20,000 nucleotides of DNA from assembly GCA_035559535.1 (NCBI GenBank), contig DATMBG010000037.1, positions 112,475 to 132,474 on the forward strand, given 5' to 3'. The notes beneath the pieces are model-generated. The model saw nothing but the letters and a program-made list of their open reading frames with translations. It ran no database searches and was not told where the DNA came from. The position numbers were made by a program, and so were the translations under genes. Source of the stretch: Candidatus Limnocylindrales bacterium. GTDB lineage: Bacteria; Moduliflexota; Moduliflexia; Moduliflexales; JAUQPW01. Positions 1,428-12,758 of this stretch are shown in pieces (positions within the stretch are counted from its first letter, which is position 1; every line of letters starts with the position of its first letter).

Positions 1428-2957
1428 CTAAAATCCCCGTCTTAACGCCTGTTGTCGACCTATCCATTTCCAGGGGTTCAAGATATTCCGATCGGTTGAA
1501 GGAGTAAGTGGGGAAGAGTCTTTTCGGTTTTTATAGGCCAAAAAAGCAGCTATTAGCGCGACATCCCGAAGTTCATCGGCATCCGTTTCCTCCTGGAGGG
1601 GATACCCGGCTGAGCCATCCAGAAATTGAGAGTCGATAAAATGGGTATGAAAATTTCCGGCGATAAAGTGGGGATTCTTCATCACCTTTTTGTGGAAAGG
1701 GATCGTAGTTTTAATTCCTAGAACCTTAAATTCATCCAGGGCCCGGGACATTCTTTGAAGGACTTCCTGGCGGTCACGTCCCCAAACGATTAACTTGGCG
1801 ATCATGGAGTCGTAATATACGGAGATCTCATCTCCCTGGAAGGTTCCACTATCAACCCGGATCCAGGGTCCAAGGGGAGGTTGTAAAACTAGAATTTTAC
1901 CGGGGGAAGGCATAAAGTGATTTTCCGGGTCTTCAGCGTAAATCCGACACTCCATGGCAGCCCCGTTTAACCGGATTTCCTCCTGGGAGTAGGAGAGTCT
2001 TTCCCCGGCGGCTATTCTAAGCTGCTCCTTGACCAGATCGATTCCCGTCACCATTTCGGTTACCGGATGCTCGACCTGCAATCGGGTATTCATCTCCAGG
2101 AAATAAAAATTCTTGTTCTTATCTACTAAAAATTCAAGGGTTCCGGCGTTGTAATACCCTGCGGCCAGGGCTGCTTTTACTGCTGTTTTGCCCATCCTTT
2201 GACGCAGGTCTGGATCTACAATGACCGAGGGGGATTCTTCGATAAGCTTTTGATGTCGACGCTGGATAGAACATTCCCTTTCTCCCAGATAAACCATTTT
2301 CCCGTACTTATCCCCCAGAACCTGAATTTCTATGTGTCGGGGCTCTTCGATATATTTTTCCAGATACACAGAGGGATCCCCAAAGGCAGATCGGGCTTCG
2401 GAGCGAGCACTTCTCAGGGCACTCTCCATATCCCGGGAGTTCCGGACAATACGCATACCTTTTCCGCCGCCCCCCGCAGCCGCCTTGATAACAACAGGAA
2501 ATCCTATCTCTTCGGCCAGGCGCATGGCCATACGGTCGTCTTCAATTACATCTTCTGTCCCCGGAACTACCGGAACCCCCTCCTGAAGAGCTATCTTCCT
2601 GGCCGCCGTTTTATTTCCCATCGCCTGGATAGCCTGACTGGATGGACCGATAAAAACCACTCCTTCTTCCTCACATCTTCGAGCAAAGGTTGCGTTCTCG
2701 GATAAGAATCCATATCCCGGATGAATTGCTTCGACTTTGGTCGCTCGTGCAATCTCCAGAATTTTTTCTATATTGAGGTAGCTCTGAATCGCCGGAGGCG
2801 GACCGACGCAATAGGCTTCGTCGGCATATCGTACGTGAAGGGCCTTACGATCTGCTTCGGAATAAATGGCGACTGTTGTAATCTCCAGATCCCTGCAGGC
2901 CCTGATAATCCTCAGAGCAATTTCCCCACGGTTGGCAATAAGAATTTTTTTGAACAT
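1428..2957 (-). CDS. accC: Biotin carboxylase subunit of an acetyl/propionyl/methylcrotonyl-CoA carboxylase
   Basis: KILIANRGEIA, IHPGYGFLSEN, KAAAGGGGKGMR, ERECSIQRRHQK, FLEMNTRLQVEHPVTE, YYDSMIAKLIV. A C-terminal extension (ALIAAFLAY...NPWKWIGR) resembles split PccA/MccA-type alpha subunits, so the substrate is uncertain. Confidence 0.93.
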   Translation of the reverse strand: MFKKILIANRGEIALRIIRACRDLEITTVAIYSEADRKALHVRYADEAYCVGPPPAIQSYLNIEKILEIARATKVEAIHPGYGFLSENATFARRCEEEGVVFIGPSSQAIQAMGNKTAARKIALQEGVPVVPGTEDVIEDDRMAMRLAEEIGFPVVIKAAAGGGGKGMRIVRNSRDMESALRSARSEARSAFGDPSVYLEKYIEEPRHIEIQVLGDKYGKMVYLGERECSIQRRHQKLIEESPSVIVDPDLRQRMGKTAVKAALAAGYYNAGTLEFLVDKNKNFYFLEMNTRLQVEHPVTEMVTGIDLVKEQLRIAAGERLSYSQEEIRLNGAAMECRIYAEDPENHFMPSPGKILVLQPPLGPWIRVDSGTFQGDEISVYYDSMIAKLIVWGRDRQEVLQRMSRALDEFKVLGIKTTIPFHKKVMKNPHFIAGNFHTHFIDSQFLDGSAGYPLQEETDADELRDVALIAAFLAYKNRKDSSPLTPSTDRNILNPWKWIGRQQALRRGF

Positions 2958-3104
2958 GACCGGTAACCCTCTACTTTACAACCAGGATATGATACTTCCT
3001 AAGCTTAGACCCATTCCGGGGCAATAGCCTTTAATAACGGTGCAGTTGTCATCAAAGTACTATACGCTTTGGAAAGCTTCAAGTAAATTTTTTCTATAAA
3101 GATA

Positions 3105-3379
3105 ATCCAGAAAGTGGGAAAGAGGCCCCCCAGGCCTTGGTAAACTAACACGCCCTTCCTGTCGAGGGATTCAGAATTCAGAATTTTCTTCAAGCTTCCT
3201 GGCCGTGTCCTGTTAGACAGGTTGCCCTGCCGGGGCTGACCTTTTCCCTTCAGTCAGGGTTTCCCAGGTCTTATCGGCCTTAACCGTCGTTTTGTGGGTT
3301 CCTTCCCATCTAACAAAGTGTTTTCTTCAATGAAGCCTATACGGTTGCTTTTCCACCTCCTTCCCGGTAAGCACCGTAT
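3105..3379 (-). ncRNA. Candidate structured, GGA-rich small RNA or long 5' leader (sigma54-type promoter)
   Basis: No credible ORF. 5' hairpin ATACGGT-GCTT...AAGC-A-ACCGTAT (3379-3339); long-range stem TGTTAGATGGG/CCTGTCTAACA (3315-3305 with 3221-3211); about 9-10 GGA motifs; 3' hairpin AGGCC-TGGG-GGCCT followed by a pyrimidine tract. 3' boundary approximate. Confidence 0.45.
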
Positions 3380-3389
3380 CTTTTTACAG

Positions 3390-3405
3390 AGCAAATTTTA
3401 TGCTA
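3390..3405 (-). promoter_or_regulatory. Putative sigma54 (-24/-12) promoter
   Basis: Minus strand TAGCATAAAATTTGCT vs consensus TGGCAC-N5-TTGC(A/T): exact spacing and TTGCT -12 box, but AG instead of GG at -25/-24. Predicted +1 = 3379. Confidence 0.5.
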
Positions 3406-3444
3406 TATTCCCAAAGGGAGACTTTATTTGTAAAAGGGATCTTT

Positions 3445-3457
3445 TTTCAATAACTTA
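3445..3457 (+). promoter_or_regulatory. Putative IHF binding site
   Basis: TTTCAATAACTTA vs WATCAANNNNTTR (one mismatch) in an AT-rich tract between the palindromic sites and the -24/-12 element. Confidence 0.4.
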
Positions 3458-3487
3458 TAAAAAATTATTTTAGGGAAGCCTTCTTTC

Positions 3488-3579
3488 TGTCTTGCTAAAG
3501 GAGACAATAAAAGAGCTATAGAGACCTACAAGTTATTTTTTATTAAATAATTGTTTGATGTCTCAGTTTCTAAGACATC
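3488..3579. promoter_or_regulatory. Two TGTCT-N9-AGACA palindromes (candidate enhancer-binding-protein UAS)
   Basis: TGTCT-TGCTAAAGG-AGACA (3488-3506) and GATGTCT-CAGTTTCTA-AGACATC (3557-3579): identical half-sites and spacing, about 110-200 bp upstream of the predicted +1. Confidence 0.6.
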
Positions 3580-3607
3580 TTTCTCCCTGAGAGAGATCTT
3601 TATTTTC

Positions 3608-3636
3608 TTGACAATTCAGACCGGGAATATTAGTTT
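3608..3636 (+). promoter_or_regulatory. Putative sigma70-type promoter for the thrC-like/sulfur-carrier operon
   Basis: TTGACA (3608-3613), 17 bp, TAGTTT (3631-3636). Confidence 0.55.
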
Positions 3637-3642
3637 TCACAT

Positions 3643-3669
3643 AAATCCTTATCCAGAATAGATAGATTT
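3643..3669. promoter_or_regulatory. Imperfect palindrome at the predicted start site; candidate repressor operator (possibly Rrf2/CymR type)
   Basis: AAATCCTTATC-CAGAATA-GATAGATTT; AT-rich dyad immediately downstream of the -10 box, upstream of probable sulfur-amino-acid genes. Confidence 0.3.
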
Positions 3670-3812
3670 TCCCAAGAAACTTATGGAAATGACAGAATTC
3701 TTTAACCCTACAGGATGACCGAAGGGAACTTACCGATATAAGCGTTTCTGGGATGATCCTCCTTTTAAACCGTGGAAAGCGGTAGAGGTGTCTGTATTGC
3801 TTAATTTTATAA

Positions 3813-3873
3813 ATTGTTCAGTGTCCGTTGCAAGGAACAGCAGACAACGGACAAAGGACAATGGATAGCGGAC
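3813..3873. repeat. Heptamer-repeat palindrome (GGACAAn units)
   Basis: ATTGTTC-AG-TGTCCGTTG (3813-3830) pairs with CAACGGACA-AA-GGACAAT (3845-3862); 7-nt periodic units AGACAAC/GGACAAA/GGACAAT/GGATAGC. Confidence 0.7.
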
Positions 3874-3875
3874 CG

Positions 3876-5135
3876 ATGAGTTACGTACGTGGATTAAAGT
3901 GTCGGGAATGTGGGCGAGAATATCCTAAGGAACCCTTACATGTCTGCGAGTTTTGTTTCGGACCATTGGAAGTTGTTTATAATTATGAAGAGATCAAACG
4001 GAATATCAGTAAGGAGAAAATTGCCGAGCGGCAGAAGAACATGTGGCGGTATAAGGAGCTCCTCCCTTTAGAAAAAGACAGCGGAATCGGTATCGATATC
4101 GGATTTACGCCGTTAATTCGTGCCCATAACCTGGCTCAGGCTCTGGGAGTTTCTGAACTTTATCTTAAAAATGATGCGGCCAATTATCCGACCCTCTCCT
4201 TCAAAGATCGGGTTGTATCGGTAGCCTTGTCCAAGGCCAAAGAGTTCGGCTTTGATACCGTTGCCTGTGCATCTACCGGAAATCTGGCGAATTCAGTGGC
4301 AGCCATTGCAGCAGCCAGTAGCCTTCGTAGCTTTGTTTTTATCCCCTATGACCTGGAGCAGGGAAAAGTTCTTGGAACCATGATCTACGGGACCAATTTA
4401 GTAGGCATCAGGGGAAGCTACGATGAAGTCAACCGCCTGTGTAGCGAGATTGCCGGTAAATACGGTTGGGCCTTCGTCAACATCAACCTGCGCCCTTACT
4501 ATGCTGAAGGTTCTAAAACCTTTGGCTACGAAATTGCCGAACAACTGGGGTGGAAGGTTCCCAAACATATCGTGGTTCCCATGGCAGGTGGATCTCTCAT
4601 TACCAAGGTCTGGAAAGCCTTTAAGGAGCTGGAAAAGCTGGGTTTTGTTTCCGAGGTGGATACTAAAGTTTATGGCGCCCAGGCGACGGGGTGTGCACCT
4701 ATTGTGACTGCCGTTAAGAAGAAAAGCGAGCTGATTACCCCTGTTAAACCGTCTACCATTGCCAAATCCCTGGCTATCGGTAATCCCGCCGATGGCTTTT
4801 ATGCCATGGGAGTAATCCGAGAAAGTGGCGGCTGGGCCGAGGATGTATCCGATGAAGAAATCATCCAGGCCATGAAACTTTTAGCTGAAACCGAAGGAAT
4901 TTTCACAGAAACTGCCGGTGGCGTCACATTGGGGGTGACCAAGAAACTCCTGGACCAGGGAGTCATTCCCCGAGATGAATCCATTGTGGTCTCCATTACA
5001 GGAAATGGTCTAAAAACCCAGGAGGTGGTCATAGATCGTGTGGGTAAACCCATCGTCATTGAAGCTAAGCTCTCCCAATTTGATGCCCTTTATAAAGAAA
5101 AAGGGGGCAGAAAATCCATTAACCACGAAGAATAA
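3876..5135 (+). CDS. thrC: Threonine synthase-like fold-type II PLP enzyme (possibly a sulfur-carrier-dependent O-phosphohomoserine sulfhydrylase)
   Basis: N-terminal CRECG...CEFCFGPL zinc ribbon, PTLSFKDR (PLP lysine), CASTGNLANS, AKSLAIGNPADG, EGIFTETAGG, ITGNGLK. Start placed at ATG 3876 because the 3828-3875 extension is translated repeat. Family is secure; the reaction is not. Confidence 0.85.
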   Translation: MSYVRGLKCRECGREYPKEPLHVCEFCFGPLEVVYNYEEIKRNISKEKIAERQKNMWRYKELLPLEKDSGIGIDIGFTPLIRAHNLAQALGVSELYLKNDAANYPTLSFKDRVVSVALSKAKEFGFDTVACASTGNLANSVAAIAAASSLRSFVFIPYDLEQGKVLGTMIYGTNLVGIRGSYDEVNRLCSEIAGKYGWAFVNINLRPYYAEGSKTFGYEIAEQLGWKVPKHIVVPMAGGSLITKVWKAFKELEKLGFVSEVDTKVYGAQATGCAPIVTAVKKKSELITPVKPSTIAKSLAIGNPADGFYAMGVIRESGGWAEDVSDEEIIQAMKLLAETEGIFTETAGGVTLGVTKKLLDQGVIPRDESIVVSITGNGLKTQEVVIDRVGKPIVIEAKLSQFDALYKEKGGRKSINHEE

Positions 5136-5137
5136 AA

Positions 5138-5201
5138 GATAGAAGATCAAAGGTCGAGGATAAAGCCTGTAGGAACTATCTTCCCTGCTTGATCTTCTAT
5201 C
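5138..5201. repeat. Intergenic heptamer-type palindrome
   Basis: GATAGAAGATCAA (5138-5150) is a perfect 13-bp inverted repeat of TTGATCTTCTATC (5189-5201), with further imperfect inner pairing. Confidence 0.8.
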
Positions 5202-5212
5202 CTCAAAGAGTT

Positions 5213-5728
5213 ATGAGCGTGATTGTCAGAATTCCAACGCCTTTAAGGAAATTAGCCGGGGGAAACGCCGAAGTTGAAGTTCAAGGAAGCACCATTTCTG
5301 AAGTTATCGACAATCTGGAAAAGTCCTATCCAGGGCTCAAGGAGCGGATCTGCGATGAAAAAGGAGCCATACGTAGGTTTGTAAATATCTACGTTCGGGA
5401 GGAAGATATTCGGTTCCTTAAAAATATGGAAACCGAGGTAAAAGACGGAGATGTGGTCTCGATTGTACCGGCCATTGCCGGAGGTGCTATAGAAAAAAGA
5501 CGGGTTTATTTAACTTTTCCTAAGGAGTTGGTTAAAGAGCCGTTGATTTATCGGGTAGGACATAAATTTGAAGTGGTTACCAACATCCGTCAGGCCAGCG
5601 TTTCCGATGAAATCGGACTTGTAGCTCTGGAGCTGGAAGGTGAACGAGAGGAAATTAAGAAAGCCATTGCCTACTTCCAGGAACAGGGGGTGAAGGTAGA
5701 ACCTATCGAGATGGATGTAATCGAGTAA
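5213..5728 (+). CDS. Ubiquitin-like sulfur carrier (MoaD/ThiS/CysO type) fused to a C-terminal NIL domain
   Basis: Residues 1-91: VRIPTPLRKL...RRFVNIYVREEDIRFL...VSIVPAIAGG (beta-grasp sulfur carrier). Residues 92-171: RVYLTFPKELVKEPLIY...FEVVTNIRQASV...GLVALELEG (NIL domain). No stop after GG (5480-5485). Confidence 0.88.
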   Translation: MSVIVRIPTPLRKLAGGNAEVEVQGSTISEVIDNLEKSYPGLKERICDEKGAIRRFVNIYVREEDIRFLKNMETEVKDGDVVSIVPAIAGGAIEKRRVYLTFPKELVKEPLIYRVGHKFEVVTNIRQASVSDEIGLVALELEGEREEIKKAIAYFQEQGVKVEPIEMDVIE

Positions 5729-5748
5729 TTTTTAACCAACCATTCCCT

Positions 5749-5815
5749 GAATTTCACGAATTTTATCCTCCCAATTCGTGAAATTCTCTCCTTCTCCCCT
5801 TCTCCCCTTCTCCTT
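5749..5815. repeat. Perfect 14-bp inverted repeat followed by (TTCTCCCC)n units; may also act as terminator or 3' stabiliser
   Basis: GAATTTCACGAATT (5749-5762), 10-nt loop, AATTCGTGAAATTC (5773-5786), then TTCTCTCC TTCTCCCC TTCTCCCC TTCTCCTT. Confidence 0.75.
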
Positions 5816-12056: not shown

Positions 12057-12575
12057 CTAAAACACGGCTACCCGGGTGGCCTGGGGTCCTTCTCTACCCT
12101 CTTCAAGATCAAACTCTACCGGAATCCCCACTTCAAGGTTTTCAAAAGAGACGCCTCGAACAGAATTTTTATGGAAATAAACTTCTGTTCCTTCCTCTGT
12201 AAGAATAAAGCCATATCCTTTATCCTTAAAAATTTGGCTGATGGATCCTCTAGGTTGAGTAGACGGCGGCTTGATGGCATGAATCTGTTTTTCCTTGATA
12301 TAGTCTTTAAGTTCCCTTTCGATGGTATCGAAGGCCTTAAAGAGTGCGTTCTCTAGCGTATCATCGGTCTTGTTCGCGACCAGGGTATTACCCGGAACCA
12401 GCAGCACAATACGTACACAATCATTCCCCTTCTGATGGTGGGGATCTTTTTCTAGCGTAATGCGGATATGAATGAGATCGATATCGTATTTAGTAAGTTT
12501 GGAGAGTCTTTCTTCAATTAAAGCCCTTCGTGCCGGGGTTACCTCATCATGGAGTCCTTCAATCTGAATGTTCAT
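12057..12575 (-). CDS. HPF/RaiA (S30AE) ribosome-associated domain fused to a cold-shock domain
   Basis: N-terminal MNIQIEG...HIRITLEKDPHHQKGN...LENALFKAFDTIERELK; C-terminal KGYGFILTEEGTEVYFHKNSV...EEGREGPQATRV (RNP1/RNP2). ATG 12575 follows AAGGAGG. Confidence 0.88.
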   Translation of the reverse strand: MNIQIEGLHDEVTPARRALIEERLSKLTKYDIDLIHIRITLEKDPHHQKGNDCVRIVLLVPGNTLVANKTDDTLENALFKAFDTIERELKDYIKEKQIHAIKPPSTQPRGSISQIFKDKGYGFILTEEGTEVYFHKNSVRGVSFENLEVGIPVEFDLEEGREGPQATRVAVF

Positions 12576-12758
12576 ATCAAGCCTCCTTCCCAAAGAAGTG
12601 GATGCAAAAAGACGTTCCGATTTTAATTTAATACAAATCCTGCATAGTTTGTTCCAACTAAATAGGTTTTGAGAGTTTTTCTGTTTAAATTTCTCGCGTA
12701 GAATCCTGCCTTCAGAAGGATAAGCGACGAAAAGAGAGCTACCTGAAGGATATGCCGG

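Follow-up and report, generated by a model that had tools for sequence, protein, structure and literature searches.

A sulfur carrier fused to a NIL domain beside a ThrC-like enzyme: a candidate homocysteine-forming module in a Moduliflexota genome

Here, we examine two adjacent genes on a 20,000-nt stretch of DNA, referred to below as the window (contig DATMBG010000037.1, positions 112,475 to 132,474, assembly GCA_035559535.1), from a Candidatus Limnocylindrales bacterium that GTDB places in the Moduliflexota and whose genome (G000) measures 5.6 Mb, lies on 58 contigs and is 95.8% complete. The upstream gene encodes a ThrC-like enzyme dependent on pyridoxal 5'-phosphate (PLP), and the downstream gene a ubiquitin-like sulfur carrier whose Gly-Gly (GG) motif reads on, in the same frame, into a NIL domain. 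We discuss the pair as a candidate module for homocysteine synthesis and ask how a carrier capped by a whole domain might be matured. The features concerned, in window coordinates, are the following.

3876..5135 (+), ThrC-family PLP enzyme, 419 aa; MetM-like candidate homocysteine synthase that would depend on O-phosphohomoserine and the carrier thiocarboxylate (profiles, tree)
3900..3956 (+), N-terminal four-Cys ribbon of the enzyme: C9, C12, C24, C27 (Pfam NinF-type ribbon, residues 8-32, 8e-08)
5138..5201 (+), RNA hairpin in the 77-nt spacer between the enzyme and fusion genes (folding against shuffles)
5213..5728 (+), carrier-NIL fusion gene, 171 aa plus stop (open reading frame, Pfam, relatives, AlphaFold2 model)
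5213..5485 (+), CysO/MetO-type ubiquitin-like sulfur-carrier domain, residues 1-91, ending PAIAGG (phmmer, structure superposition)
5480..5485 (+), Gly90-Gly91 codons, the carrier's would-be C-terminus and putative cleavage site (invariant in fusions)
5486..5503 (+), short linker AIEKRR (alignment; predicted local distance difference test score, pLDDT, ~80-85 here)
5498..5701 (+), NIL domain of MetN C2 type, Pfam residues 96-163 (Pfam, phmmer, superposition)
5582..5584 (+), Asn124 codon, aligned with MetN Asn295 (phmmer alignment to MetN)

The carrier-NIL fusion gene

The fusion gene is a single open frame from the ATG at 5213 to the TAA at 5726-5728, with no stop at the junction of its two domains: the G90-G91 codons GGA GGT (5480-5485) are followed by GCT ATA GAA AAA AGA CGG, giving the stop-free AIEKRRVYLTFP... 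Both domains are full matches, Pfam ThiS covering residues 5-91 over its whole profile (1-76 of 76; 6e-16, 59.2 bits) and Pfam NIL (PF09383) covering residues 96-163 (2.1e-16, 60 bits against a cut-off of 24). Among NCBIfam models, the SAMP1-type (60.6 bits, cut-off 60) and MoaD_arch (53.5, cut-off 49.5) families are passed, and residues 99-163 match MetN positions 270-338. The first-pass annotation of this DNA, made from its letters alone, had described a complete MoaD/CysO-type carrier reading through its GG into a NIL domain directly behind a ThrC-like enzyme, and the open frame together with the profile scans it had proposed bears this description out. The gene product does not end in a free Gly-Gly; as 80 residues follow in frame, a free GG end requires processing of the fusion.

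The fusion is not an assembly artefact. A 4353-nt metagenome contig from an independent run (X2) covers 3802-5798 at ~96% identity with 77 substitutions (listed in part), and its sole indel is an extra A behind 5726, at the stop codon; the junction at 5480-5500, where a check of the reads had been advised, is spanned without one. Relatives at 89% and 85% identity are likewise 171 aa long, and at a further near relative, locus L111, the NIL domain is 99% identical and fused too, such that the stop after GG by which the first-pass annotation would have recognised an error is seen in none of these close relatives. RNA contigs (X12) cover 3949-4205 and 4894-5104 of the ThrC-like gene of a ~96% relative, not the fusion gene, and give at most a weak hint that the ThrC-like gene is transcribed.

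Altogether, 3908 proteins match the fusion at E<=1e-3 (from 3973 candidates of 94-300 aa), and the best 120 of these all contain both ThiS and NIL. In these 120 fusions the GG is kept at the junction without exception, nearly always as PAIAGG, with G90 and G91 forming invariant columns, and a second alignment gives the same result for 19/19 fusions. Behind the GG, the relatives carry 2-9 variable residues and then a K/R-rich stretch before YLTFP.

An AlphaFold2 model of the fusion, built on 120 sequences, has a mean pLDDT of 90.4 and a predicted template modelling score (pTM) of 0.53, consistent with two well-folded domains that would hold no fixed mutual position. Fold assignment, made also by Foldseek, identifies both. 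The carrier domain aligns end to end with CysO chains in phmmer (4n6e_B, 2.9e-24; 3dwg_C, 4e-22), and superposition (VIA) on Mycobacterium tuberculosis CysO 3dwg_C gives Z 18.1 and a root-mean-square deviation (rmsd) of 1.0 over 89 residues at 48% identity. The NIL domain matches the C2 domain of MetN (3dhx, phmmer 5.4e-4; superposition (VIA) on 3tuz_H, Z 12.4, rmsd 1.9 over 74 residues, 30% identity). Across the MetN structures 3dhw, 3dhx, 3tuz and 6cvl, the likeness amounts to the same fold (Z 10-12), ~29% identity and a conserved equivalent of Asn N295, although the window's NIL domain is not attached to an ABC ATPase. The phmmer alignment places N124 on N295 (3dhw_C residue 271 = query residue 9), and at least 90% of the 120 fusions share this Asn. 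In MetN, the N295A exchange abolishes L-methionine binding to the C2 domain, according to the accessible part of PMC6233128.

The ThrC-like enzyme and its relatives

The enzyme belongs to the PALP family (2e-71) and passes two threonine synthase models, TIGR00260 (295 bits, cut-off 167) and PRK08197 (316.5 bits, cut-off 303). Its closest solved chains are also threonine synthases (2zsj, 2e-58), and it fails the cysteate synthase model TIGR03844 (61.5 bits against a cut-off of 324.9). Since this carrier-linked enzyme passes the threonine synthase models, they evidently do not separate the two clades that a tree reveals. Built from 66 sequences (quick LG+G4, midpoint root, two long rows flagged), the tree contains a branch with a Shimodaira-Hasegawa-like approximate likelihood ratio (SH-aLRT) support of 99, with 57 carrier-linked enzymes, including that of the window, on one side and, on the other, the hom-linked thrC together with six second thrC genes from the same operons (Nitrospirota). 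Between the clades, 40 alignment positions differ invariably. Of these, 12 lie in the N-terminal ribbon and 28 in the shared region, the latter including FKDRVV versus FKDRGM just behind the PLP lysine and TGNL versus TGNT. The ribbon itself is missing from the canonical ThrC rows; in 56 relatives, C24 never varies and C9 and C12 show 90% conservation or more.

Three thrC-like genes in the genome score above the TIGR00260 cut-off. The best (345 bits, contig C15) lies directly behind the homoserine dehydrogenase gene (hom), providing the second, canonical thrC for which a search had been proposed, and the window's gene is not the only thrC. The comparison supports the enzyme being a paralogue tied to the carrier rather than the threonine synthase of this genome, as the first-pass annotation had suspected; its separate clade, the hom-linked thrC elsewhere and the S-adenosylmethionine (SAM) riboswitches of its relatives (see below) fit the MetM/MetO route, with homocysteine formation from the carrier thiocarboxylate as the most likely activity on sequence grounds. 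Of the tree proposed earlier, the separation from canonical ThrC stands at SH-aLRT 99; cysteate synthase was compared through TIGR03844.

Two further arrangements of ThrC-like genes deserve mention. The third such gene of this genome (contig C58, L010:1318-3168, +) encodes a 616-aa protein that joins the PLP domain to a LeuA allosteric/dimerisation domain (PF08502, 5e-32), and it forms a long branch. In L058, L060, L061, L062, L065 and L069 (Nitrospirota, unclassified), one operon contains, in this order, genes for the MetM-like enzyme, carrier and NIL and a canonical thrC, which implies that two enzymes competing for O-phosphohomoserine are co-transcribed.

NIL partners, riboswitches and processing genes

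Two surveys of related loci show that the NIL domain accompanies carriers of this kind well beyond the fused form. The first, of 80 loci found with the fusion as query, favours NIL-bearing loci since the query itself contains NIL; NIL is present in 60/80, and in 54/80 the carrier gene is immediately preceded by a ThrC-like gene (51/69 of those with room upstream). Here, the carrier is fused to NIL in 11 loci, ends exactly in GG in 28, and carries 1-5 residues behind the GG in 36 and 7-12 residues in 5. The second survey covers 78 new loci from a narrower NIL-only alignment (a diverse NIL alignment proved too variable for locus search), and a carrier lies no more than 300 nt upstream of NIL in 54 of them, with 4 fused, 14 capped and 38 GG-stop loci by class. 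GG-stop carriers thus account for 66/158 loci over both surveys. The survey of fused versus split genes that the first-pass annotation had advised accordingly finds the fused form in 11/80 and 4/78 loci, with separate genes being commoner.

In other lineages, a free NIL protein of ~80 aa is encoded right after a GG-ended carrier. Stop-codon readthrough in these split forms was considered and rejected: TAG, TGA and TAA all occur as their stop codons, and translation of NIL begins at an ATG of its own or at a TTG overlapping the carrier stop. Judged by these starts and stops, the split forms are ordinary gene pairs. Fused and split forms are separated by at least five changes on the enzyme tree, meaning that NIL was repeatedly joined to or split from the carrier. 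A search with the NIL half among 1.84 billion representatives gave 881 matching clusters (E<=1e-3), of which the best 150 comprise 118 stand-alone proteins (<=135 aa), 11 NIL-NIL tandems, 11 carrier-NIL fusions and 2 JAB-NIL fusions. The tandems, among the closest relatives of the NIL half, measure 142-185 aa (P0123, P0125, P0144 and 8 more). JAB-NIL fusions of 237 aa are conserved in 32 Poribacteria clusters (P0196, P0272-P0302), and in L079 and L081 JAB and NIL are encoded by two neighbouring genes that follow a carrier capped by 7 residues. No other NIL domain was found in the present genome.

Riboswitch control of the related operons points to methionine metabolism. A SAM riboswitch (RF00162 at the Rfam gathering score) lies upstream on the operon strand in 26/37 related loci, namely 12/12 GG-stop loci, 9/13 further loci and 5/12 loci of a fused set in which 10 are fused and two (L036 and L084) nearly so. 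The riboswitch-bearing members of the fused set are L031, L033, L034 and L035, all fused, and L084; in these five loci, where positions were compared, the riboswitch lies directly before the ThrC-like gene. In L112-L121 (metagenome-assembled genomes, MAGs, of Deltaproteobacteria), the riboswitch lies ~3.3 kb upstream of NIL, farther than the ThrC-like gene and carrier need, and these riboswitch-controlled units probably contain a further gene. As for other methionine routes in this genome, MetX adjoins a MetY-type enzyme on contig C51, making the window module a second route to homocysteine and not the only one, and the DUF39 route was not found.

The processing genes that the first-pass annotation had proposed to search for are present in this genome, in one operon on contig C42, remote from the window. 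This operon encodes CysM, a JAB protease, a rhodanese+ThiF E1 and a carrier ending AGGKS. The JAB is the only one of the genome (82 bits) and has an intact E...HxHx7Sx2D motif. The C42 carrier (L007:8173-8442, -) is of CysO type and 56% identical to the fused carrier, and its GGKS end, a two-residue cap, means that it also needs trimming. The E1 (L007:8589-9770, -) contains an in-frame TGA in APT*DEAGVLG, behind which the frame continues through the rest of the ThiF domain, at a position which we take to be the conserved Cys of ThiF/MoaB-type E1s such as MoeB. The genome encodes SelA (3e-162), and the E1 is probably a selenocysteine enzyme; the hairpin behind its UGA (-24.5 kcal/mol) folds no more stably than shuffled sequences (z -0.45).

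Elsewhere, a strong small JAB was found in 5/5 searched genomes with fused forms (E 3e-16 to 6e-24). In each of the seven loci L031-L037, a cluster with a ThrC-like enzyme, JAB and E1 was found to contain no carrier other than the fused gene; CysM is also present in six of them, L034 being the one without it. Whole-genome searches of G009 and G010 turned up no CysO-like carrier besides the fused protein, with G009 containing 2 ThiS matches (one weak) and G010 containing 3 (the others a 68-aa open reading frame and one in a 227-aa frame). Conversely, 5/5 searched GG-stop genomes have no strong JAB: two show weak matches of 27-30 bits, one a sub-threshold match only, and two none. In Verrucomicrobiota, the GG-stop operons retain NIL, but none of the 38 loci contains a JAB.

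The remainder of the window bears less directly on the pair. The spacer hairpin at 5138-5201 folds with a free energy (dG) of -29.8 kcal/mol (z -4.12, equalled by 0/200 shuffles), its 13-nt arms are unique within the 5.6-Mb genome and no U-tract follows it; it may serve as an mRNA processing or stability element. Upstream, between accC and the ThrC-like gene, lies an unusually long divergent intergenic region of ~900 nt (2958-3875), in which we found no Rfam match and no convincing promoter or terminator, the scan for the latter two giving nothing above shuffles. Other window genes include RNase PH, accB/accC, a sugar ABC system, ilvD and ATP synthase genes. At 12057-12593 (-), a 178-aa protein combines an S30AE ribosome hibernation domain (1.7e-14) with a C-terminal cold-shock domain (6.3e-13).

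Homocysteine synthesis and the role of NIL

A route from O-phosphohomoserine to homocysteine by MetM and MetO, with Mec and MoeZ, has reportedly been described in Streptomyces albulus by Hasebe et al. in 2024 in Appl Environ Microbiol 90:e01247-24. Homocysteine is likewise said to be made from a protein thiocarboxylate by HcyS-HcyD-HcyF-MetY of Wolinella succinogenes, where a JAB trims a capped carrier; that route reportedly differs in its MetY-type enzyme, its use of O-acetylhomoserine and a cap that is short and not a domain. The present locus resembles MetM/MetO in its ThrC homologue beside a GG sulfur carrier, in the E1 and JAB/Mec encoded in the genome, in the riboswitch control of its relatives and in a carrier that would need Mec maturation, and differs in that the carrier is fused to NIL, the locus has no riboswitch and the E1 and JAB are remote; the two are likened by description, not by sequence. 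GapMind 2026 lists MetO (UniProt A0A059W7F4), Mec, MoeZ and MetM (A0A059WBP2) and points out that MetM is often misannotated as threonine synthase (PMC13759103, accessible portion), and S. albulus metM is under a SAM riboswitch, with metO mentioned (PMC12172450, as far as its text was available). The portions available of these two secondary accounts make no mention of a NIL protein (PMC13759103, PMC12172450).

Two further systems offer comparisons. The CysM-CysO-Mec+-MoeZ cysteine pathway of M. tuberculosis (3dwg, 3dwm) has a carrier 48% identical to that of the window, and the C42 operon is of this type; in the window, however, the partner enzyme is of ThrC and not CysM type, and the carrier is capped by a whole domain. 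The MoaD-MoaE protein of Deinococcus radiodurans also has an in-frame passenger directly behind a MoaD-family GG and a JAMM/MPN+ enzyme in the genome. There, the JAMM protein DR0402 cuts the natural MoaD-MoaE fusion (DR2607), leaving a C-terminal Gly, and HvJAMM1 cuts linear fusions, SAMP1 fusions (PMC8832034, in the part available). A ubiquitin-fusion-style pro-protein is hence not new in kind, the bacterial MoaD-MoaE fusion cut by JAMM being published (PMC8832034). The passenger in the window differs from MoaE in being a small NIL domain of ligand-binding type and not the carrier's partner enzyme, and its cleavage is a prediction. The core of ThrC-like enzyme, GG carrier, E1 and JAB is of the MetM/MetO kind; relative to the literature found, the new elements are NIL as a partner and its attachment behind the GG. 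Our search found no paper combining 'NIL domain' with 'sulfur carrier', and the works found on the NIL domain were not about carriers.

On this basis, we consider it reasonably probable that the gene pair is a module of the MetM/MetO kind for homocysteine synthesis via a protein thiocarboxylate, with a carrier made as a pro-protein and cut free of NIL. The carrier would be translated with its GG blocked by the 80-residue NIL domain, and only after a cut behind G91 would it be adenylated and sulfurated. The likeliest enzyme for this cut is the only JAB metalloprotease of the genome, a Mec-type protein encoded on C42, although cleavage after G91 is inferred by analogy. Given its family and context, the ThrC-like enzyme would take O-phosphohomoserine and attack with the carrier's thiocarboxylated C-terminal Gly. 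A cut after GG would yield two products each known elsewhere as a separate protein, the released NIL being equivalent to the small protein for which most other lineages have a separate gene directly after the carrier. Released NIL may bind methionine, or a closely related compound such as homocysteine, and feed back on the carrier/MetM step; such a sensor role is the weakest step, and we hold it only tentatively, as somewhat less probable than not. Feedback of this kind could be more important here than elsewhere, because the locus is without the SAM riboswitch of most related operons.

Several observations weigh against this reading. As the first-pass annotation had noticed, the window lacks a MoeB/ThiF E1, a rhodanese and a JAB, and a domain scan of its 16 other open reading frames of at least 90 aa agrees; the free, 56%-identical C42 carrier could serve the ThrC-like enzyme instead of the fused one. 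No SAM riboswitch was found in the window at the Rfam gathering score, with only chance-level matches and none up to E 5 in 2900-3950, and the near relative L111 is likewise without one. Neither the fusion model (pTM 0.53) nor the model of a folded natural JAB-NIL fusion (pTM 0.62, linker pLDDT <50) shows a fixed NIL contact with carrier or JAB. In the second survey, neither a carrier nor a ThrC-like gene is present within 6 kb of 22/78 NIL genes, and the two of these loci that were inspected lie among unrelated genes. While the GG conservation in fused homologues that the first-pass annotation had counted on holds in the best 120 fusions, it fails in three divergent representatives (P0162, P0229, P0180), whose carrier-like domain has no GG, which implies that a non-carrier use of the fusion exists somewhere. 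The junctions of these three read, for example, ...LPGP... or ...AITKQ..., and they are possibly non-carrier derivatives of the fusion. Furthermore, an apparent link of blocked carriers to a JAB at the locus is lost once relatedness is controlled for. After dropping loci that repeat counted contigs (L116 = L031, L176 = L047), a JAB is present in 10/14 fused, 23/50 capped, 4/5 long-capped and 5/65 GG-stop loci, or 37/69 blocked versus 5/65 GG-stop C-termini (Fisher p 6.5e-9, kinship ignored); among seven independent pairs, 0.8 went the same way, 0.6 the opposite way and 5.5 showed no difference (median p 1), an underpowered comparison after which the association was dropped as support for cleavage. 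The five GG-stop genomes without a strong JAB are, moreover, MAGs from few lineages.

Some of these points would be explained if the fusion were never cut and its carrier-like domain merely docked NIL to carrier-recognising enzymes (MetM, E1), the free CysO-like carrier of C42 being the true sulfur donor. The free paralogue (GGKS) does lie beside JAB and E1, no JAB lies near the fusion in this genome's window or at L111, the GG-less fused forms exist, and the Thermus 'MoaD related protein' structure 1v8c has an internal GG at residues 86-87 of its 168-aa chain. Mere docking would, however, not need a GG that is invariant in 120/120 close fusions and at which split relatives end exactly, nor does it suit G009 and G010, where the fused protein is the only CysO-type carrier found, or L031-L037, full clusters with a fused carrier only. 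On these sequence patterns the GG must matter, and we regard docking without cleavage as improbable. That the enzyme is an ordinary threonine synthase with a carrier beside it by chance is barely credible: it passes TIGR00260 and PRK08197 and its closest solved chains are threonine synthases, yet a better thrC lies beside hom, the enzyme falls in a separate clade with 28 fixed differences in the shared region, and carrier adjacency (54/80 loci) and SAM riboswitches (26/37 loci) recur among relatives.

The remaining alternatives concern what NIL does. It might be a recognition or handling factor for the homocysteine moiety, binding the carrier-homocysteine adduct or free homocysteine and aiding release or hand-over. 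The JAB-NIL fusions, conserved in 32 Poribacteria clusters and found twice among the best 150 NIL representatives, suggest a NIL role at adduct hydrolysis, and the DUF39 homocysteine route, itself unrelated, likewise includes a NIL/ferredoxin protein (PMC5764234, accessible part). Set against this, the Verrucomicrobiota GG-stop operons keep NIL with a JAB in 0/38 loci and no strong JAB in 5/5 genomes, and the modelled JAB-NIL fusion appears to have a floppy linker and no fixed interface (pTM 0.62); a handling factor is unlikely. The first-pass annotation had proposed instead that methionine bound to NIL on the uncut fusion blocks the protease, making carrier maturation the regulated step. This would fit the loss of the SAM riboswitch in this lineage (window and L111) and the conserved methionine-binding Asn, but cannot be the ancestral or general role, as in most relatives NIL is a protein of its own and the carrier's GG is either free or capped by a few residues (GG-stop in 66/158 loci), and 5/12 fused or nearly fused loci still bear the riboswitch. 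As the explanation of NIL we therefore rate gating as very unlikely, with its possible place being in fused, riboswitch-less lineages such as this one.

Returning to the pro-protein module, its recurrent NIL, whether free, carrier-fused or protease-fused, represents a conserved component beyond the published pathway as far as the available portions of its accounts go. A broader proposal, speculative and improbable as it stands, is that NIL is an undescribed regulatory subunit of protein-thiocarboxylate sulfur amino-acid synthesis that responds to methionine or homocysteine by acting on the carrier cycle, and that in lineages without the riboswitch its fusion makes JAB maturation metabolite-gated, a control point resembling ubiquitin precursors. 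Public annotation of this clade reads 'threonine synthase' and 'molybdopterin synthase sulfur carrier', such that methionine synthesis would be misread in many uncultured phyla, including Thermodesulfobacteriota, Nitrospirota, Verrucomicrobiota, Planctomycetota, Poribacteria and others. The fused form offers a natural test case for the maturation of bacterial ubiquitin-like carriers, and may reveal post-translational feedback on a sulfur-carrier pathway.

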